NCBI GenBank assembly: GCA_963674755.2
Contig: CAXXVS010000003.1
Span: 800,001 to 864,000 of the forward strand
From: Desulfobacterales bacterium
GTDB lineage: Bacteria; Desulfobacterota; Desulfobacteria; Desulfobacterales; UBA5852
Direction: 5' to 3'
DNA: 64,000 nt
The number at the start of each line of letters is the position of its first letter. Within the stretch, counting starts at the first letter, position 1. This document shows, piece by piece, positions 2 to 60,852 of the stretch. Under the pieces are notes generated by a model. That model searched no databases. It had not been told where the DNA came from and saw only the letters and a program-made list of their open reading frames with translations. Position numbers and translations under genes: made by a program.

Positions 2-502
2 CAGTCCGGCGGAAATATCTGGGTTTACAGCGTACCCGGTCAGGGCACGACCTTCAAGATTTACTTGCCGCGCACAGTCGACGCGCAAATCGCCCGGGAG
101 GCCACCCATACGGAGGCATCGATCAAGGGCCGGGCGGAGAAGATTTTAGTCATCGAGGATGAACCGGCGTTGCGCAAACTTTGTGCGACAATTTTGAAGC
201 GCGCCAATTACCAGGTGACCGTCGCGGCCAACGGAGGGGAGGCTTTGCTATTGGTCGAGGAAAACAAACTGCGTCCGGATCTGGTCATTACCGATATGGT
301 GATGCCCGGCATGAGCGGCAAAGTCCTGGTCGGGCGCCTCAGAAAGAGGCTGCCCGACCTCAAGGTTCTGTACATGTCCGGCTATACGGACAATGCCATT
401 GTGCATCATGGGGGCCTGGACGCAGGGACCCCATTTATTCAAAAGCCCTTTGAAAAGGGCAAATTGGAGCGAAAGACCAGAGAACTTCTAAATGGTCAAT
501 AA
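2..502 (+). CDS. C-terminal part (end of HATPase + receiver domain) of a hybrid sensor histidine kinase, truncated by window start
   Basis: Frame open from position 2 (QSGGNIWVYSVPGQGTTFKIYLPR), then REC motifs ILVIEDE, ITDMVMP, MSGY, IQKPF. Confidence 0.9.
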   Translation, partial: QSGGNIWVYSVPGQGTTFKIYLPRTVDAQIAREATHTEASIKGRAEKILVIEDEPALRKLCATILKRANYQVTVAANGGEALLLVEENKLRPDLVITDMVMPGMSGKVLVGRLRKRLPDLKVLYMSGYTDNAIVHHGGLDAGTPFIQKPFEKGKLERKTRELLNGQ

Positions 503-44713: not shown

Positions 44714-46705
44714 TTACTCCAGCGGGATATCCGCTTCCGGCGAGGGTTCCCCGGTGGCACCGTTGGCCGCCCGATAAATCAGACGATAGGCCACCCTGGG
44801 CTGCTGCGGCGGATTGAGGTCCACGGCGGCCTCGGCGTCGCGGATGCCGCCGGTCAAAGGACGCCAGGCGCCGTCCGCCTCGTGCCGCTGGACAATGACG
44901 TCCAGGCCTTCGGGCGGGGCTTTGAACGCGATCCGCACATGGCGAAAGGGCTTCTCTTCGACATGGAGGGAAGGTTCCGGCGGGGTGGGTACGGGCGGGT
45001 TGGAAACCGTCACCCGGCGGGCCCAGCTCGGATCGCTGCGGTTGCCGGATGCGTCGACCGCCACCAGCCGGTACCAGTATTGCTTTCCGACCATCACAAA
45101 GGGATCCTCGAAGCGGTCTTTGTTAGCCTGAACCGGGTCGCCGATGACCAGCCCCGGATCCGCCTCGCTCACCGAGCGGACGACCAGAAAAGCGTCCACA
45201 TCCCCTTCCGGGGGCGCGGCCGCAAAGGTCAGCACGACTTTGCCGTCCCGGCCGTCGATGCCGGTAATGCGGGGCGGATTGGGGGAAACGGTATCCAGCA
45301 GCACCGCCTCGACTTCCCGGCTGGGCTTGCTGCGCTGGTTGTCGAAGGCCACGGCCGTCACCCGGTAGCGAAAGGTTCCCTGGGTGTGCAAGCCGACGTT
45401 ATCGTCAAAGCGCGGCTCCGGAACCACCTGCGGGGTGAGATAGGTCCAGCGCGGGGCATCGTCGGCCCTGCGCTCCACCAGGTAGCCGGCCACGGGAAAC
45501 GGCACCGCCTCCCAGGTGAGCCGTACCCGGGTGCGTCCCACCGCGGCGGCCAGCTCGTCGGGACGGGGGGGCGCTTCGCGGTTCCGGGGCGTCGCCGTCC
45601 TGACCAGGGAAGGCTCCCCCAGGTTGCCGCGCGGATCCATGGCGCGGACGCGGTAGAAATAGCTGGTGCCGCCCACCACCCGGGTATCTTCCCATTGGGT
45701 TTGATCGGCGTCGAGACCCTCGGGGGTCGCTGCACTATAGGGGCCGTTGCGCAACAAGGCGCGTTCGACCACGTAGCCGGCGGTAAAGGGGCTGGGGTTG
45801 GCTTCCCAGGCCAGGGTGACCCGGTTCTCCCCCGCGTCGGCGCTGAACCGGGCCGGCGGCACCAGGGCCGCAAGATCCGGAATGAAAAGGGTTGTGCTGC
45901 TGGGGCGGCTGCGGCGGTCGAACAAATCGAGACTGAACAGACGATAGGTGGCCTCCGACTCCTTGGGCGGCGCCAGATCGATAAACTGGGCGTCTGACGG
46001 CGGGGATCCGGCGGTGGTGATCAACAGGGGCTGCTCCGTAAGCAGGATGTCCCCGCCGCGTTTATCTTCCCGCATCACGGTGAAGGCATAGACCGGAACA
46101 GCAGGGTTTGGCTTCGGGTTCTCCCAGCTCAATTCAACGCCGGCCTCCACGGGGACGGCCATGAAAGAAAGCGGCGCCTCCGGCAAGGGGGTGGCCTGCA
46201 GGGGGTCTACGGCCGCGCTTTGCAGCACCGCCTGCTTTTTCCCCTTGCTGTTGAGGGCGGTCAGACGATAGGTGCGCTTCCCCCCCTGGGGATCGCTATC
46301 CTGGTAGCGCAGGCCGACGGCCAGACCGAAATCGGCGTCGGCGGCCGCGGAAAGCCCCATGACGGTCACCGCCATTTCCCTGTCCGTCTTAGGGATGGCA
46401 CCGGCCTGCAGATCGGCCTGAAAGGCGTCGATGGCGCTCCGGTCCGCCGGCCGCAGCCTCTCCATGGCGGCCTGATTCCGGCCCGGCCCGAGCTTGTCCG
46501 CCACCGTCTGTGCTTTGCCCTGGACGACTTTTTCCAGACGCCAACCGCCTTGGGGCCAGATGAGATCCTTGGGAATCCAGAAGAGGGAAATACCTCCCCG
46601 GCCGTCGGAAGCTGCCCACAAGGCGCCGCGGGGTTGATCGGCCGCCGTGGCAAGTCCGGCCGTAAGGAGGAGCAGCAGCAGTACAAGAATGGTCGCTTTT
46701 TTCAC
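44714..46705 (-). CDS. Secreted protein with multiple fibronectin type III repeats
   Basis: Signal peptide; repeated VxLxW...GYxVER...YxYRVxAxD...SxPS FN3 patterns. Confidence 0.85.
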   Translation of the reverse strand: MKKATILVLLLLLLTAGLATAADQPRGALWAASDGRGGISLFWIPKDLIWPQGGWRLEKVVQGKAQTVADKLGPGRNQAAMERLRPADRSAIDAFQADLQAGAIPKTDREMAVTVMGLSAAADADFGLAVGLRYQDSDPQGGKRTYRLTALNSKGKKQAVLQSAAVDPLQATPLPEAPLSFMAVPVEAGVELSWENPKPNPAVPVYAFTVMREDKRGGDILLTEQPLLITTAGSPPSDAQFIDLAPPKESEATYRLFSLDLFDRRSRPSSTTLFIPDLAALVPPARFSADAGENRVTLAWEANPSPFTAGYVVERALLRNGPYSAATPEGLDADQTQWEDTRVVGGTSYFYRVRAMDPRGNLGEPSLVRTATPRNREAPPRPDELAAAVGRTRVRLTWEAVPFPVAGYLVERRADDAPRWTYLTPQVVPEPRFDDNVGLHTQGTFRYRVTAVAFDNQRSKPSREVEAVLLDTVSPNPPRITGIDGRDGKVVLTFAAAPPEGDVDAFLVVRSVSEADPGLVIGDPVQANKDRFEDPFVMVGKQYWYRLVAVDASGNRSDPSWARRVTVSNPPVPTPPEPSLHVEEKPFRHVRIAFKAPPEGLDVIVQRHEADGAWRPLTGGIRDAEAAVDLNPPQQPRVAYRLIYRAANGATGEPSPEADIPLE

Positions 46706-46715
46706 GGTCGGTCTC

Positions 46716-49700
46716 CTATAGACTGAAGGTGCGGCAAATCTTGGGGTTCCAGAACGGAATCGGGATGGTCACGCAGCCCCGGGCCGAGGCGGCCACCGGC
46801 AGGGCGCTGACATCGACCCGCACGGAGATGCCGGCGCTGATGCACTTTTTATAGCACACTTCGGCGCGCACCCCGCCTTCACCGTATCCGGCTACATGGG
46901 GCTGGGAGGTGACGGTCAGACCTGTTTTAAGTTCGCCGGAAATGTGCCCGATGGAGGCGCCCAGGTAATAATAGACCCCGCCGCCGAGGCGCAAGGCATC
47001 CTCGTCCAGCATCATATAGCCGTCCGCGTCGCGAATCAGGAGATGCATGCGCACTTTGGGTCCGGCCTCCTGCCCGACATAGATATGCCAGGGCTGGCTT
47101 CCGCCGAAGTGCAGCGTACAGGCGTTTTCCGGGATGTCGAAATAGATGTTGTCGTCCAGGAGGCTGAAATGCCCGGCCAGGGCACCGTCGAACCCCCCGG
47201 CCGCATACTGGAAATAGCCCTGGAAGTTGCCGTTGCCGGCATGCTGGGCGTCGAGCAGCCAGGCCCGGAAGTCCATGCGCGCGCCCTCGCCGGGCTTGAC
47301 GGTGAGATCGCCGTCCATGGTGCAGACAAAGCCGTCCGAGGAGCCTACCCGCATGCCGGCCATGAAGAGATAGGAGCTGTCCGCCACCGGGGTCACGGCC
47401 GTGATGGGCGTGGTGCTCTTGAAGGCGTCCAGGGGAAAGTTGTGACCCAGGCCGCCGCGCATTTGATAGAGTTTGAGGAAGGGCGGCGCGAAGGGCATCC
47501 CGGCGGGTCCCAGATCCAGAGTCGACCGCATCAGCCAGTAGTCATGGCCGCCCATATAGCCCAGACGAAACTCGGCCTGAACCGGCGGGCCATTGAACAT
47601 GGCCATATTCACCGTACCGGCGAAACGGTCCTGGGGGCCCGAGGCCGCATAGGCGCTGGCCACCCCGAAAGACCATCCGCCTTGGCCGGAGGCATCCGCG
47701 CTCGCGGCGGACATGCCCGCGCCGGTGTAGGCGATGTGGACGGTGGCCGCCACCCGGGGCTGTCCGGCCGGGAAGGCGACTTCCAGGTCAAAGGGCTCGA
47801 CCTGCGGCCCAGAGCCTTCGTAGGAATTGCCGTCCTGGCGCAGACCGTAGTTCACCGGCACCTCGACCGCCGAAAGGACCTCGGAGATGGAAAAGGTGGT
47901 GGTAAAATCGAAGCCGAGGAGATCGGCCCCGCTGCTATAGCAGCCGATGCGGACGGACACCAGATCCACCGGGGTGAACCCCAGGGTCGATTGCCCGCCC
48001 AGGGGAACCTCAATGCTGGTGCCGTTCTCCAGAACAGGCCGCCCGTCCATGGAATAGATGATGCCGGGCACCACCACGTTGTCGGCGAAGACCACCTCTT
48101 CGGCCTCGAAACGGAAGAGGGTACTCTCGCTCCGGGCGGCCCAGCCGGTTTGGGGGAAGTTGCCGAAGAGCAGATTGCGGACGGTCATGGTAAAGGCCCG
48201 GTAATCTTTGTGCACCTCGGACTGGGTGATAGCGGCGAAGTCGAAGTAGGCCTCCTGGCCGGGGGCTCCGTAAATGAGGCGGGCGTCACCCTGCAGGTGG
48301 GCGTCGAGCCAGGGGAGGTGCACGTCCATGTCGCGGTAGGTCGCCAGGCTGCTTTGGGTGGTGTCAACGCTGATGGCGGCCACGCTGATGGTGCCCTTCT
48401 TGTAGGTCGTGGCGAAGGGGGTGGTGATGTCCGTCTGGCCGACTAGCCGGGTGCCGACCACGCCCCAGTCGCTGACGTGCCCCTTGTTGGCCTCCGGCAC
48501 CTGGAAGTCGAAGAGATTGGGGGCCAGGAGCGCATCTTCGCCGAAGTGCAGTCCGGCCCATTCCGGGCCGGCCCCGCCGGGGTTGGCCGGCATGCCGTCC
48601 TGGGCGCTGAGATCGAAAATGACTTCCCGGGGTGCGATGGAAAAGCCGCTGTTGCCGATCTCCAGCTCCATGCCGCCGGCATCCCGGCCGTACCAGTCGC
48701 CCGCTTCGGAAAGGGGCGCGGTGACGGTCCACTCCGGTGCCTGGGGGGTGCCCGTAAGATGCAGATCGGTATCCGCCGGTTTCGCCGCCAGGGTCAGGTT
48801 CATGGGGGTCTGGCCGGCCCGGGCGGCAAGCTTCTGTAGCTGGAGGCGCATACCGGCCCCGTTGATGCTGTAGGTCAGGGAAATATCAAGGTTGCCGTTT
48901 GTGACCGTCAGGCCGTCGTCCGCCACGCGCCAGCCGCCGATGGCCACCGGCAGGATGAAGCGCTCCGCGCTGCCGCCCGCCCCGGTATAGAGGTGCATGT
49001 CGAGAACGCCGCTTCCCTTGAACCGGCCGCCCGTATTCACGACATCGAGATTGCCGATGGCAAAGGTGTCCCCGGTGGCGGTGGGGAACAAAAACCGGCA
49101 GGGTTTGTCAGGGGCGCTGGCCTTGACCCGATAGCGGAAGGGATCGGATTGCACATAGTAGGGCTTTTCCTTTTTGACCGATAGCTCGGGAAAGCGCTTG
49201 GCCTCGGTCAATTGGTTGAGGCTTGCTGTCACGGGCCTCCCGGAGATGCCTTCCCTGGAGGGGGCCAGGACGCCCAGTTTGAGGCCGCTTTTTTGGAAAA
49301 GGGCCAATTGGGCGTTTCCGGCGGGGCCTGCCCCAGCGGCCCGGGCTTCGGGCACCAGCCAGGAGAGCACCTTGTGTGCCATGCTTCTGTCAGCGGCAGA
49401 AAAGGAGGACCGTCCGGCGGATGCCAGGAGGTGGACGAAGGTGACCTGGTCGAGGGGCAACAATTCGGGCAGCACCTCCGCCTCCACCACCAGGGCATAG
49501 GCCTGGTTGATCATGGTGTCGTTCATCTCCACCACCGGGGATGGCAGAGCGGCGGTGGCAAAGGATTCGGGCGTGGGGGTGCTCTGGGTGTTTTCGGTCA
49601 GGACCATGCCGCCTGCGGTGCGCGGCGGCGAGGCCAGGTTCTCTTCCAGCGAACCGATCACCATGCGGGTGTTCCCCTGATAGAGGCTCCAGGTGATTTT

Positions 49701-52274
49701 GGCGCGCCCCTCGCCGTAGTAGCGCAATCCGGCATTGCCCTGGAGGAGGCCGCAACTGCTGATTTCCGCATCGACCAGCGTGCCCAGGACGCCCTGAACC
49801 GTCTGGCTTATTGCCGGTGAGGGCGGGGTCAGGACAAGACCGGTGGCCTGACCGGCCGTGCCGGCAGCGGCCTGGGGTTTGGGGATGGTTTTTTTCTTGT
49901 TGGGCAAGCCCTTGGGCGCGCTCTTTTTCGTGGGCAGCTGGCCGGCGCCGGTGGATCCGGAACCATTGTGGCCGGTGATGGCGATGGATTCCAGATGGAG
50001 CGGCCCTTGAGCCACCAGATCCTCGCGCACCGCGATCTTTTTAGTCTCGCAATGGATCAGGTAGGCGCGGCCCGCCTTGGCGAACAACGAATTTTCATCC
50101 AAATGAAATTGGCGCTCGTTCGGGCCGGAAAATTGGAATCCCGGTCCCTGGGCGGTTTGAATCCCTTTGATAACCTTGAGATATGGATGATAGCCCGAAG
50201 CGGAGGCCGCCACGGGTTCCACGGCGGACTGGGCATTGTTCATGACCTCGTCGTAGGCGGCGGCCAGAGCATCGGGGGGCCCCTGCTGGATGTCCTCCTC
50301 GGGGAGGGCATAAATGCGTACCGTGTAGTTGCCGCTGTAAGGGTAGCGATGATGATAGACGCGGCCCAGGGGCCGCAATTCCTGATAACCCGGCTGGCTC
50401 AGGTCGATTTCCAGCGGAATCGCGCCGCTGCCGTCGCCCCAGTCGAGAAAGAGGTTGGGCACGTAGGTGGCGATCTGGCCCCCGGCACTGACCTTGGCGT
50501 TGATGTGGGTGGCATAGGGGATCGACTGGATATTGAGTTTGCCGGTGAGTTTCCACTGGTCGTTGGGATAGTTGGCGGTCCGGTTGCCCTTGTCGGGGTT
50601 GTTGATGACAATGGCCGAGGCGCTTGCCGCGCTGCCGCCGCAGGCCAGACCGGTGGGTTTGTCCGGCATGAGCAGGGACCAGCGGTCTGAAATTTCCACC
50701 TCCACGTCTTTGGATTCGACGGTTTTATGCGTCTGGGCGATATCCGTCGGGCTGCTCCCCGGCACCGTTTCCGTTTTGATCGTGGTGGTGGTCCGGTAAC
50801 CGGCGACCTCCCACCAGACATAGAGGTTGCTCAGCCCGTGGGTGACCGTGTTCTGATGCGTCTTCCAGTCTTCGGTCAACAGTTTGAGCAGATAGGCCGT
50901 ATCCATCTGGAAGAAATTCGTGGGGGCGTTGATCTGGAGCCCGTTGACCTCGAACTGGACGGGATCGATGCGCTTTTTATCGATGACAAAGCCGTTTTCA
51001 GTCACGATGCGGAATTCGTACCATTCCGCCAGGCCGGGATTTTCCTCCCGCCAGGAAAAAAGCGTCTGCTCGTTGACGGCCGTGATGAATTGGTTGGATG
51101 TCAGCGTATCTTCAGGGCTGACAAGGGTGATGCGGCCGAGCAGCATGCCCTTCAGGTCCGGAGGGATCAGTTTGGGCGTGGGCTTGGCCACCGCCAGGTC
51201 TTTTTTCGCCAAAACCCAGGCCTTGGCCGGAAAAGCATGCCAGGCCTGGGAGGCGTCGGCCCGCAGGCTCAGGGGGCGCAGACCCGCCGAAGCCCCGCGG
51301 GAGACCGTGACTTTCATGGTAAACCGGGTGGGGGAGAGGACCGCCAGATCTTCGACCGTTATGCCGTCGCCCAGATCCACCGCCAAGCCGCTTTTGAATC
51401 GGGTGCCGGTCACATTGACGTCGTAGGTTCGGCCCTGCACCCACTGATTGGGGGTCAGGGCCGCGACGGACAGGTTGATGCGGGCGGGCCGGGCAGCGGT
51501 TTTTTCGGGCGCCGTCTTTTTCTGTAAGGGCGCCGCAGGCGTCGGGCCGGTCACGGTCAGGGCCGGGGAGGCGATCACCAGGACGGGAACGGCGGCAGGG
51601 GTGTTACCCCCGGCATCGGTCAGGGTGACCTGGCGCGGACCGGGTGCGGCATCGGCGGCTACGTCCAGACTGACCCGCAGGTGGCCACCTTCGGCGACCG
51701 GCGCGGCAGCGGTGATGCCGGCACCGAAGCTGACCGCCGTGACGCCTTCCAGATGGGCGCCTGCCAGGGTCAGGGTGTAGGATCGGCCCCGGCTCAACCG
51801 GTTGGGGGTAATGGATCGGATATGGGGACGCGCCTGGACGGCGACCACGTTGATGCGTGCCGGGCTCTGGTGCGTCTGGTTGTTGTATTGAACCTGGACG
51901 GTGCGCGCCCCGGCCGGCGCGTCGGCCGCGACGTGGAAGGCGACCGTCGCCAGGGAAGCGGCCTCGTTTAGAATGGTGGGATTGCCGGTGGTAATGCCAA
52001 CCCCTAGCGTGACGCGCATATTGTGATGGAGATGCTGCCCGGTGAGGGTCAGCACACCCTCCTGACCTTGAGTGAGCGCCGCAGGGTTGACGGCCTGGAT
52101 CATCGGAAAGGTTGATGGTCTTGCCGGCTGGAGACTGCCGGGGCGATTCGTGACGGTGGGGGCCGGGCGGCGATTTTGAAGCTGGGGTTGGCTTACAGGA
52201 TTGCCTGCTTGGGCCGACTGGACGAAGAGAAGAAACAGTGCAAGCAGCGCAGCAAATAAGGGGTGATGTTTCAT
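46716..52274 (-). CDS. Giant (1852 aa) secreted protein: three IPT/TIG-like Ig repeats, PKD-like domain, long beta-strand-rich C-terminal region
   Basis: Signal peptide ending AQA; repeats IxxxxPxxxxxG...LTGxxL...GxGIT...VAADAxxGxR; DWGDG...HRYPYSGNYTVRI; GAGG RBS. Confidence 0.85.
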   Translation of the reverse strand: MKHHPLFAALLALFLLFVQSAQAGNPVSQPQLQNRRPAPTVTNRPGSLQPARPSTFPMIQAVNPAALTQGQEGVLTLTGQHLHHNMRVTLGVGITTGNPTILNEAASLATVAFHVAADAPAGARTVQVQYNNQTHQSPARINVVAVQARPHIRSITPNRLSRGRSYTLTLAGAHLEGVTAVSFGAGITAAAPVAEGGHLRVSLDVAADAAPGPRQVTLTDAGGNTPAAVPVLVIASPALTVTGPTPAAPLQKKTAPEKTAARPARINLSVAALTPNQWVQGRTYDVNVTGTRFKSGLAVDLGDGITVEDLAVLSPTRFTMKVTVSRGASAGLRPLSLRADASQAWHAFPAKAWVLAKKDLAVAKPTPKLIPPDLKGMLLGRITLVSPEDTLTSNQFITAVNEQTLFSWREENPGLAEWYEFRIVTENGFVIDKKRIDPVQFEVNGLQINAPTNFFQMDTAYLLKLLTEDWKTHQNTVTHGLSNLYVWWEVAGYRTTTTIKTETVPGSSPTDIAQTHKTVESKDVEVEISDRWSLLMPDKPTGLACGGSAASASAIVINNPDKGNRTANYPNDQWKLTGKLNIQSIPYATHINAKVSAGGQIATYVPNLFLDWGDGSGAIPLEIDLSQPGYQELRPLGRVYHHRYPYSGNYTVRIYALPEEDIQQGPPDALAAAYDEVMNNAQSAVEPVAASASGYHPYLKVIKGIQTAQGPGFQFSGPNERQFHLDENSLFAKAGRAYLIHCETKKIAVREDLVAQGPLHLESIAITGHNGSGSTGAGQLPTKKSAPKGLPNKKKTIPKPQAAAGTAGQATGLVLTPPSPAISQTVQGVLGTLVDAEISSCGLLQGNAGLRYYGEGRAKITWSLYQGNTRMVIGSLEENLASPPRTAGGMVLTENTQSTPTPESFATAALPSPVVEMNDTMINQAYALVVEAEVLPELLPLDQVTFVHLLASAGRSSFSAADRSMAHKVLSWLVPEARAAGAGPAGNAQLALFQKSGLKLGVLAPSREGISGRPVTASLNQLTEAKRFPELSVKKEKPYYVQSDPFRYRVKASAPDKPCRFLFPTATGDTFAIGNLDVVNTGGRFKGSGVLDMHLYTGAGGSAERFILPVAIGGWRVADDGLTVTNGNLDISLTYSINGAGMRLQLQKLAARAGQTPMNLTLAAKPADTDLHLTGTPQAPEWTVTAPLSEAGDWYGRDAGGMELEIGNSGFSIAPREVIFDLSAQDGMPANPGGAGPEWAGLHFGEDALLAPNLFDFQVPEANKGHVSDWGVVGTRLVGQTDITTPFATTYKKGTISVAAISVDTTQSSLATYRDMDVHLPWLDAHLQGDARLIYGAPGQEAYFDFAAITQSEVHKDYRAFTMTVRNLLFGNFPQTGWAARSESTLFRFEAEEVVFADNVVVPGIIYSMDGRPVLENGTSIEVPLGGQSTLGFTPVDLVSVRIGCYSSGADLLGFDFTTTFSISEVLSAVEVPVNYGLRQDGNSYEGSGPQVEPFDLEVAFPAGQPRVAATVHIAYTGAGMSAASADASGQGGWSFGVASAYAASGPQDRFAGTVNMAMFNGPPVQAEFRLGYMGGHDYWLMRSTLDLGPAGMPFAPPFLKLYQMRGGLGHNFPLDAFKSTTPITAVTPVADSSYLFMAGMRVGSSDGFVCTMDGDLTVKPGEGARMDFRAWLLDAQHAGNGNFQGYFQYAAGGFDGALAGHFSLLDDNIYFDIPENACTLHFGGSQPWHIYVGQEAGPKVRMHLLIRDADGYMMLDEDALRLGGGVYYYLGASIGHISGELKTGLTVTSQPHVAGYGEGGVRAEVCYKKCISAGISVRVDVSALPVAASARGCVTIPIPFWNPKICRTFSL

Positions 52275-53454: not shown

Positions 53455-54318
53455 ATGGGGCAACAGGGGGTAAGGCCGGAGCGCTTTCCCGGGCCGGGAT
53501 ACAACATCATCAACTGCAACCAGACGACATCACCCATGAGCCAACTGCCGGACAAATACAGCCGCAGCGCAATTCTAAATCCCGTCAAGCTGCGCAAAGG
53601 ACAAACCCGCTGGAACCAGTGCGCGGCCGCGGTCCGCGACATCGACGCCGCGCTGCTGGAAGGACCGATGCTCGACTTGGGCAGCGGTGTGGGCTATTTC
53701 GTGCGGGAAGGCCTGCAGCGCGGCCTGAATATCTGGGGCGTGGATGCCAGCGCCGGCAAGCTGGTGCGCTTCTGCAAGCTCGTTCACTACACGGGCGGCC
53801 CTGCAAGGTGGCAGCAGCGCTGCCTGCAGGCGGATGCCGAGGACCTGCCCTTCGGATCCGATTCTTTTGCTCTCGTGAGCTCCTGGTATGTGCTGGAGCA
53901 CCAGCGCAATCCCGGGGTCTCCCTGCGGGAGCTGGTGCGGGTGACCCGTCCCGGCGGGGTGCTGGCCATCAAGGCCCAGGATGCCCGGCGCGGCTGGGAA
54001 GGCCACTGCAAGATCCCCTGGATTCCCTTTCTCTCCCGACGCATGGCCCGGGTCTGGGCGGAAGAATTCGGCGCCGCCATCGAACGGCGGGACGATGTGT
54101 ATGATGTTACCCAGCCCCAGGTCGTTGCCATCCTGGAGAACCTGGGCTGCGAGGTGGTGGTGCGGGCCGCCCCTCCCCAAGCCGTTTTGCCGGACCACTG
54201 GCGAATCGGCACTGAAGACGACGTCCGCCGGGCGGCACGCCACATCCGGGAGCTGCAGGAGACAGGGCGCTGGCGGCCGCCGCCGGAGAATCTCTACCTC
54301 TATGCCGTCAAGCGCTAA
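53455..54318 (+). CDS. Class I SAM-dependent methyltransferase (start may be 53537)
   Basis: MLDLGSGVG, WGVD, ADAEDLPFGSDSF, VLEH, RVTRPGG. Confidence 0.85.
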   Translation: MGQQGVRPERFPGPGYNIINCNQTTSPMSQLPDKYSRSAILNPVKLRKGQTRWNQCAAAVRDIDAALLEGPMLDLGSGVGYFVREGLQRGLNIWGVDASAGKLVRFCKLVHYTGGPARWQQRCLQADAEDLPFGSDSFALVSSWYVLEHQRNPGVSLRELVRVTRPGGVLAIKAQDARRGWEGHCKIPWIPFLSRRMARVWAEEFGAAIERRDDVYDVTQPQVVAILENLGCEVVVRAAPPQAVLPDHWRIGTEDDVRRAARHIRELQETGRWRPPPENLYLYAVKR

Positions 54319-54512: not shown

Positions 54513-55361
54513 TCAAAATTCGGTCACTGGCTCCAGGGGCACCTCGGGGTAGATCTGGCCGTGGGCCGGAGGCATGGAATTGTAGACCCACGCGATATCC
54601 ACCGTTCCCAGGGAAATGGCGCGGTAGCGCCGCAGGCCGCGGAAGGTGCCCCGGACCAGCACGTCTTCCATGCCCATGGTGAGACAGAACACGGCCACTT
54701 CCGTCCCGGGCGGGATGCAACGCAGCTCCCGGCCGAAGGCCAGGGGGGCAAAAGCCAGCCGCCGGCTGTCGGCCGCCTGGCACTGGACCACGGGCACCAG
54801 TTCGGGGAAGCCCTCCGGTCCTATGTAGCTGAGGAATTTCAGCGATCCCATCTGATTGAAGAGACCCTCGGCAAAGGGCTTTAAAATGCGCGTCGCATGG
54901 CCGGTGGCGGCGGCCCCCTTTCCCAGGCGCGTGAGCAGCGCTCCGACCACGATGGGGGTCATGGGCAGGGGGGCCGGGGTCGAGGCTTCCACCAGGTCCA
55001 GGTAGTGTACCGTGTTGATGCCGAAATAGCTATTGTAGCGGAACATGGGGATGTCGTTGTAGCGCTGGTATTCGGGCCCCTCCCGGCGCAGGTGGGTCCA
55101 GTGGGCCCGGCCCCGCCAGAAGCGGCGGTCCATGGTCATGATCAGAAAGGCCACCCGGGGATTTCGCTGGATGTACTGCTTGCTCAACCCCTGGCAGAAT
55201 TCACCCAGGGTAATCTGGTCGGGCCGGGGGGCCATGATGGAGGTGATCAGGGAAACATGGGGCCGTCCTTCGGGATTGACGGAGGCGACGATGCCGATCT
55301 TCTCGGCCGGTTCGAAGGCCTTCTGTTCTTCGGCGGTAAAAGCGGTGCGGTTGGCGGTCAT
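54513..55361 (-). CDS. Tandem pyridoxamine 5'-phosphate oxidase-like (FMN-binding split barrel) protein
   Basis: Two related halves: IGIVASVNPEGRPHVSLI and LKFLSYIGPEGFPELVP; ATGA overlap with the activase stop. Confidence 0.75.
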   Translation of the reverse strand: MTANRTAFTAEEQKAFEPAEKIGIVASVNPEGRPHVSLITSIMAPRPDQITLGEFCQGLSKQYIQRNPRVAFLIMTMDRRFWRGRAHWTHLRREGPEYQRYNDIPMFRYNSYFGINTVHYLDLVEASTPAPLPMTPIVVGALLTRLGKGAAATGHATRILKPFAEGLFNQMGSLKFLSYIGPEGFPELVPVVQCQAADSRRLAFAPLAFGRELRCIPPGTEVAVFCLTMGMEDVLVRGTFRGLRRYRAISLGTVDIAWVYNSMPPAHGQIYPEVPLEPVTEF

Positions 55362-56377
55362 GAGGGGATTCCTTCCGAGGTGGTCATCTCAGGCAGGCGG
55401 GTCGATCCGCTCCAATGGACGATCGCCGGATCAACGCCGGAGCGACGGGCCGTGTCGGCCAGGCGTTCCATTACGTCCCGGGGAAGCAGGGGGTGGTCCT
55501 TGAAGGCCCAGTCGCGGTCTATCCGTTGGTACTTGTCCCGGCAGAGGTTGTTGAAGGCGCACAATTCCCAGCGTTCCACAAAGCCGGACAAGTGCTCGGC
55601 CAGCCACTGCCCGATCCCGGCGATGACGGCGGCATCGGCCGTGGCCTCCGGAATCACCGGGGTGCGGATCCACAGCGTGTGCGGCGGATCACCGCCGGCC
55701 ATGCGGTCCCGTATGGCCAGGAGGTTTTCCAGGATCTGGGAGTTGGCGCGCCCTGTCCAGGTGCGGTGGCGGTCCGGGTCGATGGTTTTAAGATCATAGA
55801 GCACCAGGTCGGTGAAGGGCAGAAAGGCGTCCCGCATCGGCCCGGGATAGCAGCCGCAGGTGTCCACGGCCGTGTGGAGGCCTTCCCTTTTCAAAGCCCT
55901 GAGAAAAGCAGCCAGAAAAGGGGCCTGCAAGCCGGGTTCACCCCCGCCGGCGGTCACCCCGCCCCCGTTGGTGAAATAGGCCCGGTCTTTAAGGACTTCG
56001 TGCACCAGATCGCCAAGACGCCAGCGGGTGCCGATCAGCTCCAGGGCCGTGGACGGGCATTCGGCGGCACAGCGCCCGCAGACCGTGCAGCGCGCCCGGT
56101 CGATGGCCAGGCCCGCCGGCGTGACACGCAGCGCGTCTTCCGGGCAGACGGCGGCACAGGTGCCGCAGCCGATGCAGCGGGCGGCAAGCCAATGCAGATC
56201 AGGGCGGGCGGCAATGCTTTCCGGGTTGTGGCACCAGCGGCAGGCCAGGCTGCAGCCCTTGAAAAAGACCGTGGTGCGGATACCCGGTCCGTCCTCGGTG
56301 GACAGCCGCTGGATCTCGAAGAGCAGGGCTTCCTGTTCCTGGTCGGCTTCTGGCAAGGCGGGTGGTTTATTCGGCAT
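55358..56377 (-). CDS. Glycyl-radical enzyme activating enzyme (radical SAM) with ferredoxin insert
   Basis: EDGPGIRTTVFFKGCSLACRWCHNPES; CIGCGTCAAVCP and CTVCGRCAAECP; GGGEP; LYDLK. Confidence 0.95.
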   Translation of the reverse strand: MPNKPPALPEADQEQEALLFEIQRLSTEDGPGIRTTVFFKGCSLACRWCHNPESIAARPDLHWLAARCIGCGTCAAVCPEDALRVTPAGLAIDRARCTVCGRCAAECPSTALELIGTRWRLGDLVHEVLKDRAYFTNGGGVTAGGGEPGLQAPFLAAFLRALKREGLHTAVDTCGCYPGPMRDAFLPFTDLVLYDLKTIDPDRHRTWTGRANSQILENLLAIRDRMAGGDPPHTLWIRTPVIPEATADAAVIAGIGQWLAEHLSGFVERWELCAFNNLCRDKYQRIDRDWAFKDHPLLPRDVMERLADTARRSGVDPAIVHWSGSTRLPEMTTSEGIPS

Positions 56378-56392
56378 GGGGTTGCGGTTTCC

Positions 56393-58909
56393 TTAATAGC
56401 CCTGGTGGCTCACCCGTTCGATGACTTCATTCTGCAGCTCCTTGCCGATGGACGTGAAATAGGCGTTGTAGCCGGTGATCCGGACCAGCAGGTGGGGGTA
56501 GTCCTCCGGATGCTGCTGGGCATCGCGCAGCATGTCCGGGTCCAGCATGTTGACCTGGAGGCAGGTGCCGCCGTTTTCCGCATATCCCCTGAGGAAAGCC
56601 ATGAACTTGCCGCGGTGCTCGGGGTCGCGGATGATGGAGGGGTGAAAGGTGATGGTGTGGCTGGCGCCGTTGGGCAGGCAGTTGCGATAGCCCCCCCAAT
56701 CGCCATATCCGTCCGCAGCCCGTCCTCCCAGGACCTTGCCCACCGAGTTGGCGTTGGCCGTGGGCCCCTTGCTGTCGGCGCCGTTGGAGGGGCAGATGGC
56801 GTTGGAGAGGAACTTGCCCCGGGGCCGTCCGTCCGCGCTGGCCGCCATGACGAAGCCGTCGCCGGCCCAGTAGTTCCAGCTCAGCATGCCCGGCCGGAAC
56901 TGGCGTTGGGTGGAACGGGTGCGGTGCTGCCAGGTGAGGTCGCACCACAGATCCATGACCTGCCGGGCCATGGTGTCGGCCCCCTCGTCGTCCCGGCCGT
57001 ATTTGGGGGCCTTGTTGCGGGCCAGGGCCTGGAGGATATCGAAGCCCTGCCAGTTGGCTTTAAGCGCCGCGATCAGCTCGGCCATGGTGCATTTCTTCTG
57101 ATCGAACACCAGGTATTTAATGGCCAGCAGGGAATCCACGGTGGTGGCGTAGGTGACCGCTTCCAGGGTGGTGAAGTTCAGCTCGGCCCCGCCCCGGGTG
57201 ACGTCCAGCCCCTTTGCGGCACAGCCGCGCACCAGGCAGGAGAGGTAGGGGGTGGGGAAAAACCGGGCCCGAACCGACTCCGAGGCCTCGTAAGTGTCGA
57301 CGCATTTACGGATGATGTAGGCGGTCTGGGCCGTATAGGCCTCCCAGAATTCTTCCCAGCGTTCAAAGGTGGTTGCATCGCCGGTGGCGGGCCCGTCCTG
57401 GGCGATGGGTTCGGTCTTGCCGGTCATGGGGTTGTGGAAGGGCAGCAGGTCCCGGCCGCCGGTCAGAGCCAGCTCAACCGCCTTGAGCAGGTTGAGGTTG
57501 TTGTCCACCGTGCCGGAGCGGTCGTTGCCCGCCATGGTGTTCTCCAGGCAGCCCACCGGGGCGTAGTCGTGGACGTTGTCCGGGTGGATCAGGTGCTGGC
57601 AGCCGGCCCGTTCGGCCTCGCGCATCATGCCGGCCATGGCGCGTTCGTCGAAATTGATCAGGAAGGGAGCGCCCTGGCTGCCGGATATCATGGCCACGAC
57701 TTTGTCCAGCAGGGCCGGCGGGCTGCCCCGGTGCAGCCGCACGTTGGGCTTGGGCTCCAGGATGGGGGACATCTCATCGATGACTTCCAGGATGGCGAAG
57801 GTCAAATCGTTGGTCATGTCCCGGCCGCCGGGTCCCAGGCCGGAAAGGGTGATGAGCTGGCCGAAGCCCGAGGTGATGCCCTGGCGACCGTTGCGGATCA
57901 TGGCGTCGTAGACCGTGTTGCAGTGGATCCAGAAGCATTTCAGGATTTCCTTGCCGAACGCCCGGTCCATGCCCGCCTCGATGGAAGCCCGCCAGTAGGG
58001 CCAGAGGTACTGGTCCATGCGGCCGAAGGAGACCCCGGGGCCCGGATAGTTCTCGTCGCTCATGATAAGCATGTGGTTGAGCCACAAGGCCTGGACCGCC
58101 TCCCAGAAATTGCGCGGCGGCTCCCAGGGGACGCGCGCCAGATTGCCGGCCATGGTTTGCAGTTCCTGCCGGCGCCGGGGGTTTTCTTCCGAGTCGGCCA
58201 TTTTGAGGCACAGGTCGCGGTAGCCCGCCGCCAGCTCCCGGGGCAGGGTGGCGGCCGTCATCATGGCCCGCAGCTGGGCGCCCCGGGGGCCGGCCTGGTC
58301 GGCCGGGCTCAATTTATCGTAGCGGTCTTTCAGGTCGGCGTGGATGCCCTGCCAGCCCTTCTCCAGGGCCATGGGATGATCCGGAATGAGATGTCCGCTG
58401 GTGGCGCCGCTATTGCCGTAGCCGTGGTCGTGGAACCATTTCATGCGGGCCCGGGCCCCGTCTTTTCCCAGCAGGGCCTGGTCGAAGGACTTCTGCTCTT
58501 CTTCAGTGAGGCAGAGGGAGGTCTGGAGGTTGAAGCGGGCGCCGGCCAGCAAATCGCCGGGCAGGAGTTCCCGGGGTACGTGGTGCACCATGACCTCCTT
58601 GACAAACCAGGCCCGGCGCTCGGGCAGCGACCGGGACCAGAAATCACCAGGCAGATCGACGTTGCGGGCGGCCTGGCGAAACGAGCCCCGCAGGGTCTGC
58701 AGCAGGGCATAGGTCTCCGGCACGATATAGAAGGTCATCTCGTTGAACTGGACGTCCCAGGGGGTGCCCGTGGACCAGGCCAGGAACTGGTTGTTCCAGC
58801 GGCGGTTGGTCCCCTCAAAATAATAGTCCCGCAGCCATTGAATGCGGGGGGACAGGTTGGCGGGGGTTTTCAGGGGTGCTTCTTCCGGTTGGGCGACGGC
58901 GGTTGTCAT
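56393..58909 (-). CDS. Glycyl radical enzyme of unassigned class (non-PFL)
   Basis: Gly loop LLVRITGYNAYF, single-Cys loop PVGCLE, SFGRMDQYLWPY, APKYGRDD, LQVNMLD. Confidence 0.93.
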   Translation of the reverse strand: MTTAVAQPEEAPLKTPANLSPRIQWLRDYYFEGTNRRWNNQFLAWSTGTPWDVQFNEMTFYIVPETYALLQTLRGSFRQAARNVDLPGDFWSRSLPERRAWFVKEVMVHHVPRELLPGDLLAGARFNLQTSLCLTEEEQKSFDQALLGKDGARARMKWFHDHGYGNSGATSGHLIPDHPMALEKGWQGIHADLKDRYDKLSPADQAGPRGAQLRAMMTAATLPRELAAGYRDLCLKMADSEENPRRRQELQTMAGNLARVPWEPPRNFWEAVQALWLNHMLIMSDENYPGPGVSFGRMDQYLWPYWRASIEAGMDRAFGKEILKCFWIHCNTVYDAMIRNGRQGITSGFGQLITLSGLGPGGRDMTNDLTFAILEVIDEMSPILEPKPNVRLHRGSPPALLDKVVAMISGSQGAPFLINFDERAMAGMMREAERAGCQHLIHPDNVHDYAPVGCLENTMAGNDRSGTVDNNLNLLKAVELALTGGRDLLPFHNPMTGKTEPIAQDGPATGDATTFERWEEFWEAYTAQTAYIIRKCVDTYEASESVRARFFPTPYLSCLVRGCAAKGLDVTRGGAELNFTTLEAVTYATTVDSLLAIKYLVFDQKKCTMAELIAALKANWQGFDILQALARNKAPKYGRDDEGADTMARQVMDLWCDLTWQHRTRSTQRQFRPGMLSWNYWAGDGFVMAASADGRPRGKFLSNAICPSNGADSKGPTANANSVGKVLGGRAADGYGDWGGYRNCLPNGASHTITFHPSIIRDPEHRGKFMAFLRGYAENGGTCLQVNMLDPDMLRDAQQHPEDYPHLLVRITGYNAYFTSIGKELQNEVIERVSHQGY

Positions 58910-58979
58910 GGATCACCTCCCTGCCGGTCTTCGGCAGCAACGGACCGGGATTGCGACCCGACCCGGATTGAACGCGATA

Positions 58980-59705
58980 TCATCTTGTTTGACACATCTT
59001 TCGCAGATGCTCGGCCCCGTGGGTCAGCAGGCGTTCCATCACCGCCATGGCGGCGGCCGGATCGCGGTTCCTGATATTGGAGAGCATTTCCCGGTGGAAG
59101 GTGTGTACGGTTTTTACCACGGCCGGTTCTTCGAAAAACTGGGCGGCCAGATTGATGTAGACCTGTTTAAAAGAATTGAGCAGCAGCGGATAGATACGGT
59201 TGCCGGAAGCCAGGGCCAGCAGGTGGTGGAACTCGAAATCGAGGGCGGTCAGGCGGGTGACGTCGTGTCCGGGGGCCCGGGCTTCCCGGGCGATGACCTC
59301 CTCAAGGGCGTTCAGGTGCTCGGTTTCCCGATGGAGGGCGGCCAGCCGGGCATTTTCCACCTCGAAGAGCCGGCGGGTATCCAGCAGGCTTTCCTGGAGA
59401 TCCGTCTCCAGGCGCCCCTGCTGGTAGGCCACCAGTGAGTTCAAGAGAGCCAGGGAGCCCTCCCTCCGGTAGTCGTTGACCACCGCGCCCACCCGCGGCA
59501 TCAGGGTGATCAGGCCCTTGGCCTCCAGGTCCACCAGCCCGTTGTGCACCACCGGTCGGCTGACGCCCAGCCGGAGGGCCAGCTCCCGCTCGGAGGGCAG
59601 CTTCTGGCCGATCTTGAACTGCCCAGACAGGATGAGTTTTTCGAATCGTTCAATGAAGACATCTTTAAGGCTAGGACTCTGAAGGGGGGCTAGCAGTTCC
59701 TGCAT
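58980..59705 (-). CDS. GntR/FadR-family transcriptional regulator
   Basis: LPSERELALRLGVSRPVV HTH; FCD motifs RRLFE, DFEFHHLLALASGN. Confidence 0.93.
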   Translation of the reverse strand: MQELLAPLQSPSLKDVFIERFEKLILSGQFKIGQKLPSERELALRLGVSRPVVHNGLVDLEAKGLITLMPRVGAVVNDYRREGSLALLNSLVAYQQGRLETDLQESLLDTRRLFEVENARLAALHRETEHLNALEEVIAREARAPGHDVTRLTALDFEFHHLLALASGNRIYPLLLNSFKQVYINLAAQFFEEPAVVKTVHTFHREMLSNIRNRDPAAAMAVMERLLTHGAEHLRKMCQTR

Positions 59706-59726
59706 ATATAAACCTCATTTGGCTGG

Positions 59727-59737
59727 TGGTAATACCA
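59727..59737. promoter_or_regulatory. FadR-subfamily operator (PdhR/LldR/GlcC-type)
   Basis: TGGT-AAT-ACCA palindrome 22-32 bp upstream of the regulator start. Confidence 0.7.
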
Positions 59738-59860
59738 GTTGCCACTATGGCGCAAGTTAGATTCGTTTGTCAAGCCTTTACCTGACGGACTGTATTGAAA
59801 GCCGGTGCCTCAATTGATATGCCATTAATACGTGATGGGGGCGGAAAAAGTCCCTGGGGC

Positions 59861-60015: not shown

Positions 60016-60852
60016 ATGATGGAAGACGGTTTGAAGATCGAAAAAAAGGATGCCCTGGCGATTGTGACCCTCTGCCGCCCCGAACGGTTGAATGTTTTCA
60101 ATGCCGCCATGTTCGCGGCCCTGGAGGCGGCGGCCGATGATTTGGCCGCTGATCCCCGGCTCAGGGCGGTGATCGTTACCGGCGCCGGCCAAAAGGCCTT
60201 CAGCGCCGGGTTCGATGTCAATCCCGACAATCCCATGGTGGCGGAAATGGCCCAGGCCATCGAGCAGCGGGACAAAGGGCCGATTGCGCGCGCCATCGGC
60301 GCCATGCGGACGGCGGTGGACCGCTTCGTCGCCCTGCCCGTGCCGGTCATTGCGGCTGTCAACGGAAGGGCTTTCGGCGGTGGGGCCGAGCTGGCCGTGC
60401 GCTGCGACCTGCGGGTAATGGATCCGGCGGCCGAAATCTGCTTTTCCGAAGTCCGGTTGGGCCTGATGCCGGATTGGGGCGGGGGCGCGGCCCTGGTGCA
60501 TCTGCTGGGCGCGTCGGCAGCGTCGGATCTCATCCTGACGGCCCGCCGGGTACCGGCTGATGAAGCCCTGCGCATGGGGTTGGCCAATCGCATCAGCCCC
60601 CCGGGCCAGGCCCTGGAAACCGCGCTGGCGATCGCTGAAACCATCATGGCCAACGGGCCGCAGGCCGTGCGCCGAGCCCTGGAAGTGATCCGGGACGGCC
60701 GCAACCTTTCCCTCCAGGCCACCCTCGATCTGGAGCGGCAGACCGCGATCGAGCTGATCGCTTCCAGTGAGTGTATACATGGTATCGGGGCCTTTCTGAC
60801 CGGCCAGGTGCCGGTATTCCCGGATCCGCCTGAAGACGATCCGGCGTCCTGA
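60016..60852 (+). CDS. Enoyl-CoA hydratase/isomerase (crotonase) family protein
   Basis: RPERLN, AFSAGFD, AVNGRAFGGGAEL, FSEVRLGLMPDWGG. Confidence 0.93.
   Translation: MMEDGLKIEKKDALAIVTLCRPERLNVFNAAMFAALEAAADDLAADPRLRAVIVTGAGQKAFSAGFDVNPDNPMVAEMAQAIEQRDKGPIARAIGAMRTAVDRFVALPVPVIAAVNGRAFGGGAELAVRCDLRVMDPAAEICFSEVRLGLMPDWGGGAALVHLLGASAASDLILTARRVPADEALRMGLANRISPPGQALETALAIAETIMANGPQAVRRALEVIRDGRNLSLQATLDLERQTAIELIASSECIHGIGAFLTGQVPVFPDPPEDDPAS

Follow-up and report, generated by a model that had tools for sequence, protein, structure and literature searches.

We examined a four-gene operon of a Desulfobacterales bacterium (assembly GCA_963674755.2), which lies within a stretch of 64,000 nucleotides (nt), positions 800,001 to 864,000 of contig CAXXVS010000003.1, hereafter the window. 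The genes, all on the minus strand, encode a regulator, a glycyl radical enzyme (GRE), its activase and a tandem split-barrel protein, hereafter the partner. We found that this split barrel is the obligatory partner of the GRE in many anaerobic bacteria, where it is inherited more faithfully than the enzyme's own activase. In window coordinates the genes are:

58980..59705, minus strand: GntR/FadR-family regulator, 241 amino acids (aa); Pfam GntR and FadR_C/FCD
56393..58909, minus strand: GRE, 838 aa; Pfam PFL-like and Gly_radical
55358..56377, minus strand: radical S-adenosylmethionine (SAM) activase with a two-cluster ferredoxin insert, 339 aa; Pfam Radical_SAM and Fer4
54513..55361, minus strand: tandem split-barrel (PNPOx-like) gene, 282 aa; Pfam PNPOx_N

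The activase starts 15 nt past the GRE stop codon and the partner gene overlaps the activase stop by ATGA. With intergenic gaps of 70, 15 and -4 nt, a small Fe-S subunit gene cannot fit in the operon, which bears out the original prediction, made from the sequence letters, that no such gene is present. The gene order, GRE length, 15-nt spacing, ATGA overlap and operator that it described were likewise all recovered, in both coordinates and motifs.

The partner and its linkage to the enzyme

In a species-level genome collection, 465 stretches encode a close relative of this GRE, and the 80 closest loci were analysed. Relatives were found in Smithella, Syntrophaceae, Desulfobacterales, Anaerolineales, Spirochaetota and Firmicutes; a near clade A has at least 61% identity to this GRE, and the distant clades B and C have 44-49%. 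The partner follows the GRE in all 67 loci with enough DNA, the other 13 of the 80 ending before its position. Taken in the reverse direction, a GRE lies upstream of the partner in 47/48 metagenome loci with room for one. The dedicated split-barrel companion that had been proposed is therefore conserved beside the enzyme. It was noted that 301 genomes of this phylum include 40 with a family GRE, 41 with a partner-profile match and 39 with both. The discordant genomes have a GRE near a contig end (G091), a GRE in pieces beside the partner (G211) and a weak single-barrel match (G264). Partner-profile matches were also found in 40/301 genomes of the Anaerolineae class (that of locus L062), in 30/149 of the Firmicutes class of L075 and in 73/122 of the Spirochaetota class of L037. 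In the ESM Atlas, about half of a partner cluster is non-bacterial, its commonest phylum being Promethearchaeota; the Atlas named generic GRE and PNPOx clusters only.

Next to the partner, the activase is the less constant gene. Among 97 regions around partner matches, 73 hold both GRE and activase, 16 scored as GRE only, six were too short and two held neither gene, the genomes of these two both carrying a family GRE elsewhere. One of the 16 (L167) has a frameshift-merged activase, leaving 15 activase-free loci that keep the partner; these come from Firmicutes and, in Desulfobacterota, from clades A and B. Five such genomes were checked, and each encodes a family-type activase elsewhere, with neither a GRE nor a partner gene inside 1.5 kb of it; in four of the five, GRE and partner belong to clade A, while this detached activase most resembles clade B. 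Because the partner stays where the activase has left, it most likely serves the GRE and not the activase. A check of whether the neighbourhood of GRE, activase, PNPOx-like gene and FadR-type regulator is conserved had been proposed; the pairing of GRE and partner is conserved, the activase has gone from the 15 loci and the regulator is patchy. Of the two roles first suggested for the partner, processing the product and feeding electrons to the activase, the 15 loci disfavour the second.

The stand-alone, clade-B-like activases (L210-L214, in genomes G083, G297, G241, G045 and G181) occur in genomes with 5 to about 20 GRE matches and few activases, which suggests that activases are shared among GREs there.

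Pairwise distances across 161 loci correlated at 0.97 for GRE and partner, 0.84 for GRE and activase and 0.87 for activase and partner, values that are dominated by clade structure and inflated by shared ancestry. Mutual information between the proteins over the 161 paired loci gave noise only, the variable termini dominating.

The partner itself was modelled with AlphaFold2 at a mean per-residue confidence (pLDDT) of 91.5, and the following features were read from it:

residues ~8-132 and 158-262, minus strand: two barrels joined by a helix, from the model and from fold and profile searches
55026..55040, minus strand: RYNxY loop, residues 108-112, invariant in 174/174; pLDDT below 50 at 108-111 in the lone chain

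The two halves form a tandem repeat (HHalign of the halves, 98% probability, E 3e-13). The fold search covered the N-terminal half, and the second barrel was placed by profile comparison with the first. Fold matches of the N-terminal barrel reached Z 14.3 (root-mean-square deviation 3.0, 120 residues aligned) and Z 13.7 (2.9, 123 aligned), and profile matches to solved split barrels had E values from 6e-8 to 6e-7. This half resembles HupZ (7kpz), the flavin mononucleotide (FMN)-binding Swol_0183 (3in6), LDB0262 (2htd) and the FMN-binding protein of D. vulgaris. The likeness to these four lies in the N-terminal barrel fold; they are single barrels of 120-150 aa, whereas the partner is a fused pair with the RYNxY loop, the linker helix and the basic residues K21, K175 and R/K237, which are conserved across clades. 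That RYNxY is poorly ordered in the lone chain though invariant is as expected if the loop orders on a ligand or a partner.

The description of this gene as a PNPOx-like flavoprotein thus stands for the fold, which proved to be a tandem split barrel, and rests on that fold as regards the flavin. One retained flavin site is plausible: the motif K-[ST]-x-x-N (KTYAN in Swol_0183) occurs in 39/39 distant members. F420 is an unlikely cofactor, since cofD, for F420 synthesis, was over its cut-off in 0/5 carrier genomes; the partner itself scored 21.4 against 79.05 for TIGR03618. Membrane anchoring through the linker helix was not supported, as this helix is weakly amphipathic (mean moment 0.18).

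Class and active site of the enzyme

The GRE has the barrel, Cys loop, C-terminal Gly loop and cognate radical-SAM activase of the GRE (PFL-like) superfamily. Its two catalytic loops are:

57542..57550, minus strand: Cys loop C454-L455-E456 (CxE) in PVGCLE, C454 codon at 57548-57550; C454 and E456 invariant in 185/185 full-length relatives
56471..56473, minus strand: radical-bearing glycine G813 in RITGY, invariant in 185/185

These are the single loop cysteine and the Gly loop picked out in the original prediction. The two-cluster ferredoxin insert described for the activase was found as two CxxCxxCxxxC motifs, at 68-78 and 97-107, next to a CxxxCxxC at 42-49. Such an insert is ordinary for GRE activases, and among the models listed this activase passes only the generic GRE-activase model TIGR02494.

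We compared the GRE with characterised classes by profile, structure and phylogeny. Against the NCBIfam class models it scored, in bits over cut-off, 349.9/1000 for HpfG, 342.1/1100 for HypD (NF043068), 341.2/1000 for HpsG, 300.8/1050 for CutC (TIGR04394), 250.8/1109 for PflD, 213.5/1100 for IAD, 163.9/1150 for HPAD and 76.6/994.2 for PFL (TIGR01255). The AlphaFold2 model (pLDDT 88.3) matches all listed GRE structures about equally, with template modelling (TM) scores of 0.70-0.79 and 20-26% identity; the top Foldseek match is HypD, at 0.79. The alignment with solved GREs begins only near residue 160, and about residues 16-160 form a family-specific N-terminal region. A tree built with FastTree from 88 sequences and 742 columns places the family in a single clade (support 1.0) that is separate from HypD, CutC, YbiW, glycerol dehydratase and a microcompartment diol dehydratase. 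The landmarks of this tree were annotated plasmid genes, with the glycerol and diol dehydratase labels assigned here from gene context and sequence; alternate distant representatives were kept, and BSS, HPAD, IAD, PAD, AAD, IslA, HplG, PFL and PFL2 were left out. By these sequence comparisons the GRE is a clade of its own, in no characterised class tested. The unassigned subclass that had been proposed therefore holds, and the grouping with a characterised class that would have told against it did not appear in the tree, the class models or the site residues.

Several named classes were weighed and rejected. In PFL two adjacent cysteines sit on the Cys loop, according to the available part of PMC13450708 (section 5.3); the loop here is G453-C454-L455-E456, and together with the low TIGR01255 score this rejects pyruvate formate-lyase and TdcE. 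HypD was rejected on its cut-off, on differing site residues and on the absence of proC among the neighbours scanned, and CutC on its cut-off, on His173 at its Asp position and on the absence of shell genes among the same neighbours. For the C-S lyases IslA, IseG and HpsG, the sulfonate anchors Gln191 and Arg676 of IseG align with H173 and G674 (from the 5ymr alignment, chain numbering offset by 20), and HpsG is below its cut-off. The class models of HPAD and IAD were not reached, and the operon has no room for an HPAD-type Fe-S gamma gene. Nor is there room for the small beta and gamma Fe-S genes of the X-succinate synthases (BSS, MASS), which were near the bottom of the similarity rankings. 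AAD, HplG, HpyG and HpzG are not among the rejected classes; they were compared by overall similarity, with PAD outside the comparison, and rank level with or under the other classes.

This genome encodes a true HypD elsewhere, as well as three further GREs (genome G000; C1:1081907-1085317, locus L084; C2:266690-269143; C3:205124-207553), one of them an open frame of ~1137 aa and the C3 one under all class cut-offs. A second, unrelated and likewise unassigned GRE adjoins the cassette in three other loci (L016:12461-14935, L173:11150-13591, L225:10285-12675). Within the family clade, P0242, P0245, P0247, P0252 and P0260 are without an intact CxE or Gly-loop glycine; they form clusters of one or two members and are possible pseudo-enzymes or decaying genes.

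The 185 full-length relatives, which reach down to 44% identity, share an invariant set of residues: H173, C454, E456, Y288, Y334, D335, G344, G350 and Q351, and also R464, T467, V468, D469, N471, R672, G674 and L676. W678 is kept in 184/185 and E583 in 183/185. With active-site residues fixed in all clades, a single kind of substrate is probable for all of them. H173, C454 and E456 align with H164, C433 and E435 of glycerol dehydratase and with H165, C441 and E443 of YbiW; the H173 position is Asp in CutC and Gln in IseG. In the available text of PMC13450708, CxE provides the base in eliminases and isomerases, including glycerol dehydratase and YbiW/PflD (sections 5.6-5.7), and His164 of glycerol dehydratase is the acid for the leaving hydroxyl. 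The defining feature of GRE 1,2-eliminases and isomerases, as that text gives it, was found in 185/185, and the general-acid position His164 of glycerol and propanediol dehydratase is occupied by H173. These correspondences make a C-O-cleaving eliminase or isomerase the most likely assignment.

The rest of the pocket has changed. H281, F333, Y339, D447 and Y640 of glycerol dehydratase, which we take to be its pocket residues, align with P291, G344, G350, V468 and L676. The cap-helix aromatics F333 and Y339 are thus replaced by G344 and G350, and H281 falls at an ENYPGPG insertion. The GRE model has no helix at 338-351, and the channel loops are the least confident parts of its core (pLDDT 56 at 341-350 and 65 at 681-690). 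PMC13450708, in its available part, locates the substrate channel at the three elements concerned and describes BSS-beta as plugging it. Loss of the cap helix and of the capping aromatics suggests a bulky substrate; from the model and the alignment we infer that the pocket is roomier and less enclosed than those of solved GREs, and that the partner may close it.

Set beside known systems, DhaB1 glycerol dehydratase and propanediol dehydratase (1r8w, 5i2g) share the barrel (TM 0.78), the CxE, the His164 position and the activase ferredoxin insert. They differ in that structural identity is 23%, the pocket residues are lost and the N-terminal region is another one, and in that here there is no microcompartment or conserved alcohol dehydrogenase but an obligatory split-barrel partner. 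The isomerases YbiW and PflD (8id7, 8id0) share CxE and the N-terminal His and are a precedent for ether C-O cleavage next to a carbinol; however, the PflD model is far from reached, the YbiW positions H281 and R453 are P and G, and a phosphotransferase system (PTS) with aldolase was found in one scanned locus only (L062). HypD with its pyrroline-5-carboxylate reductase (6vxc) offers CxE, the His and a GRE paired with a second enzyme; yet the positions that we take to be Asp, Asp-Phe, Tyr and Thr in HypD are P291, F349-G350, N471 and W678. BSS, MASS and HPAD give the precedent for dedicated accessory subunits, which there shield hydrophobic patches or control access to the substrate channel. 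Their subunits are small iron proteins, like high-potential iron-sulfur proteins (HiPIP) or rubredoxins, whereas the partner, a tandem barrel of 282 aa, has no conserved set of cysteines.

Regulator, promoter and neighbouring genes

Upstream of the regulator gene the following sites were found:

59768..59773, minus strand: predicted -35 box TTGACA; TTGACA also lies upstream of most regulator-led relatives
59744..59749, minus strand: predicted -10 box CATAGT; 10/12 consensus matches, one such site also being expected by chance
59720..59744, minus strand: extended palindromic operator TGGC-N3-TGGT-N3-ACCA-N3-GCCA, core 59727-59737, lying across the presumed start of transcription

The operator core, TGGTATTACCA at 59727-59737, stands just past the promoter match. 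We found TGGY-N3-RCCA at most 120 nt from the regulator start in 47/48 regulator-led loci and in 0/24 loci without a regulator, eight of the 80 loci being excluded as too close to a contig end; the background rate was 95/8906 windows. A second locus set, which shares a few genomes with the first, gave 36/39 with a regulator against 0/62 without, and the pooled counts are 83/87 and 0/86. The operator tracks the regulator, and does so more than chance would allow. A profile built from 46 sites scored this site at 34.9 in the genome and the next one at 17.6; the search of this genome gave no second strong site, and so the regulator looks local.

It was noted that the regulator is present in 49 of the 80 closest loci and in 1/35 distant loci, which makes it an accessory of one subclade. 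The FadR-regulated operon of the original prediction is in this sense partly sustained, with a conserved operator that tracks the regulator and a regulator that many loci lack. E. coli FadR and the FCD regulators NanR, GlcC, PdhR and LldR share the TGGT-N3-ACCA core, and the nearest solved structures are acyl-CoA-sensing FadRs. In contrast to these proteins, this regulator falls below the FadR equivalog cut-off (80.8 against 189 bits) and below all NCBIfam cut-offs of the other four, and has one strong genomic site only. D156, H160 and H204 are invariant in 49 aligned sequences and H229 is mostly kept; the first three are presumably the metal site of carboxylate-sensing FCD regulators.

A terminator scan found none after the partner gene. 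In one metatranscriptome, whose word share was small, short contigs covered the promoter, GRE and partner; most came from relatives, and they are not proof of transcription of this operon. A divergent enoyl-CoA hydratase-family gene (60016-60852, plus strand) is kept at 70-87% identity in four close relatives of the 80, and a convergent SAM methyltransferase gene (53455-54318, plus strand) in 1/80 related loci; both were rejected as members of the unit on these counts. Further along the window (44714-52274, minus strand) lie a 1852-aa probably secreted repeat protein and then a 663-aa fibronectin-type-looking protein.

No transporter or dehydrogenase is conserved across 257 loci, the neighbours having been scanned with Pfam in hand-picked sets of 93 and 85 genes. 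Genes for aldehyde and alcohol dehydrogenases, described as lacking here, do lie beside the cassette in a few lineages. Aldehyde ferredoxin oxidoreductase, a lipid or glycerol hint, occurs in 17/257 loci; in most of these it belongs to a block that also contains SCP2 and Fe-alcohol dehydrogenase genes. This block lies downstream in L004 (10184-14683), L047, L048, L059, L071, L076 and L104; it often adds a second small protein, and in some loci is preceded by a 185-aa Pfam-less protein and a sulfatase. A glycerol kinase-family gene stands right after the partner in L241 (over the GlpK cut-off) and L106 (same cluster), and L075 has a kinase with an FAD-binding oxidase gene. The acyl-CoA-type FadRs that are structurally nearest to the regulator are a further lipid hint. 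Sugar hints are a Zn-dehydrogenase with the PTS and aldolase of L062 and amylase in three loci; amino-compound hints are a class III aminotransferase, a C69 peptidase and a branched-chain-type ABC transporter. In L246 (9061-14259), L251, L253 and L260 a C69 peptidase, DUF6206 and a class III aminotransferase are inserted in the operon, and the last two also occur together near a clade A locus (L119:12910-15167). DUF6206 looks kinase-like by eye (GYGEIS, AFKR, DGQISN and DTS motifs); a PDB sequence search with it gave no meaningful match. That the cassette does without fixed neighbours would suit a substrate coming in through general routes and products passed on to general metabolism.

Candidate chemistry and alternatives

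We give slightly better than even chances to the reading of the cassette as a self-contained radical lyase module with C-O chemistry, in which the partner is a subunit or product handler. The regulator would repress the operon from the palindrome over the transcription start, a site marked by conservation, and be released by a pathway metabolite. By established GRE chemistry, the activase would place the glycyl radical at G813, giving a thiyl radical at C454. The thiyl would take a hydrogen from the carbinol carbon while E456 deprotonates its hydroxyl, and H173, going by residue correspondence, would protonate the oxygen leaving the neighbouring carbon, yielding a ketone or aldehyde plus water or an alcohol, much as in glycerol dehydratase or the ether-opening isomerases YbiW/PflD. 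Given the open pocket, a vicinal hydroxy unit that bears a bulky substituent is the probable substrate. The partner most likely docks at the open channel as an accessory subunit, handles the carbonyl product by one flavin, or both; the genetic linkage of the two proteins is observed, and from it and the fold we infer their contact and the flavin.

The leading candidate substrate, itself rather unlikely, is a glycerol-type ether or lipid-derived diol. Since YbiW/PflD cleave an ether beside a carbinol, a glyceryl ether is chemically sound, though weakly supported. The more specific proposal, that the GRE with a flavin-bearing split-barrel subunit cleaves glyceryl ethers of ether lipids without oxygen and frees a long-chain alcohol for fatty-acid oxidation, is quite unlikely.

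Several observations weigh against the C-O module and its lipid form. The site correspondences come from sequence alignment at ~30% identity and not from a residue-level model, and CxE occurs in the decarboxylases HPAD and IAD as well (PMC13450708, available part). A split-barrel fold does not imply flavin binding and is often misread as FMN-binding, as the accessible part of PMC11602992 has it, and the motif lysine is kept in only 21/135 partners of clade A, the clade of this window. The neighbours diverge, with sugar, amino-compound and lipid genes each in separate lineages, and the aldehyde-oxidoreductase block is largely of one lineage. Acyl-CoA ligases adjoin 20/257 loci and are common anyway, with 23 copies in this genome; this adjacency was set aside as near background.

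An unlikely alternative keeps the same GRE-partner unit and has it carry out C-N cleavage on an amino alcohol or a substituted amine, as in CutC or HplG, with the split barrel reducing or oxidising the imine or carbonyl. Anaerolineae-class loci with a C69 peptidase (4), DUF6206 (4) and a class III aminotransferase (2) inside the operon point this way, as do the latter two near L119 of the other clade, the position of L202 within a branched-chain-amino-acid-type ABC transporter cluster, and the residues W678 and Y288, which could bind a cation. However, the CutC aspartate position is His in 185/185, and such neighbours occur in at most 6/257 loci, with no conserved transporter.

The chance is small that the split barrel is an FMN electron carrier that reduces the activase Fe-S clusters while GRE chemistry runs independently of it. 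Such a role would suit the translational coupling of partner to activase here and the presence of the D. vulgaris FMN-binding protein among the nearest folds. A 624-aa in-frame activase-partner fusion (P0491) also speaks for it and against a partner of the GRE, but it is a single case, an internal Met stands at the position of the usual partner start, and it may reflect stop-codon loss or assembly error; no such fusion was found among 257 loci. The 15 activase-free loci and the five detached activases tell against a carrier, and the invariant RYNxY loop is hard to square with a generic one.

A decarboxylase of the CxE type (HPAD/IAD/AAD-like), whose substrate would be a carboxylic acid, aromatic or not, and in which the split barrel would take the place of the Fe-S gamma subunit, is equally doubtful. 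Besides the CxE of HPAD and IAD, an acid could be bound by R464 and R672, both invariant, and by E583 and W678, both nearly so, and the regulator keeps an Asp/His set that we take to be typical of carboxylate-sensing FCD domains. Yet the IAD and HPAD models score lowest of the non-PFL classes, decarboxylase structures rank under eliminases in the profile search, and H173 matches dehydratases and isomerases. Finally, a divergent member of HypD, glycerol/propanediol dehydratase, PflD/YbiW or PFL is very improbable: database names such as 'formate C-acetyltransferase' and 'trans-4-hydroxy-L-proline dehydratase' and the best structural match to HypD favour it, but class scores far below cut-off, equally low identity to all listed classes, the separate clade, the altered substrate-binding positions and a true HypD elsewhere in the genome leave it largely refuted by sequence.

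As far as its available text goes, a 2026 review gives HiPIP- and rubredoxin-like small subunits as the only GRE accessory subunits, and the terms 'pyridox' and 'FMN' are absent from the part searched (PMC13450708). A putative PNPOx protein of unclear function, LssP, is described in the limonenylsuccinate synthase operon in the accessible part of PMC12583861; it belongs with a different GRE class and is set beside this partner by description only. The cluster of PMC6849830 is, from the part seen, unrelated. No description of a GRE and split-barrel pairing was found in a literature that was mostly non-subscription and without supplements, where network clusters could be listed, and exact-cluster database look-ups gave only automatic names. 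A partner of this kind is most likely undescribed for the superfamily, and the GRE family itself, though widespread, uncharacterised.

Each newly assigned GRE class has exposed an unrecognised anaerobic pathway, and for this one the regulator and its single conserved operator offer a direct handle for finding the substrate. The clade is common in anaerobes, and its routine misnaming as pyruvate formate-lyase or hydroxyproline dehydratase distorts metabolic reconstructions. If the ether-lipid reading were true, the partner would be the first flavoprotein GRE subunit and the cassette a route of anaerobic ether-lipid turnover in sediments and digesters. An obligatory split-barrel partner would in itself add a new architecture to the GREs, possibly coupling radical elimination to flavin chemistry.

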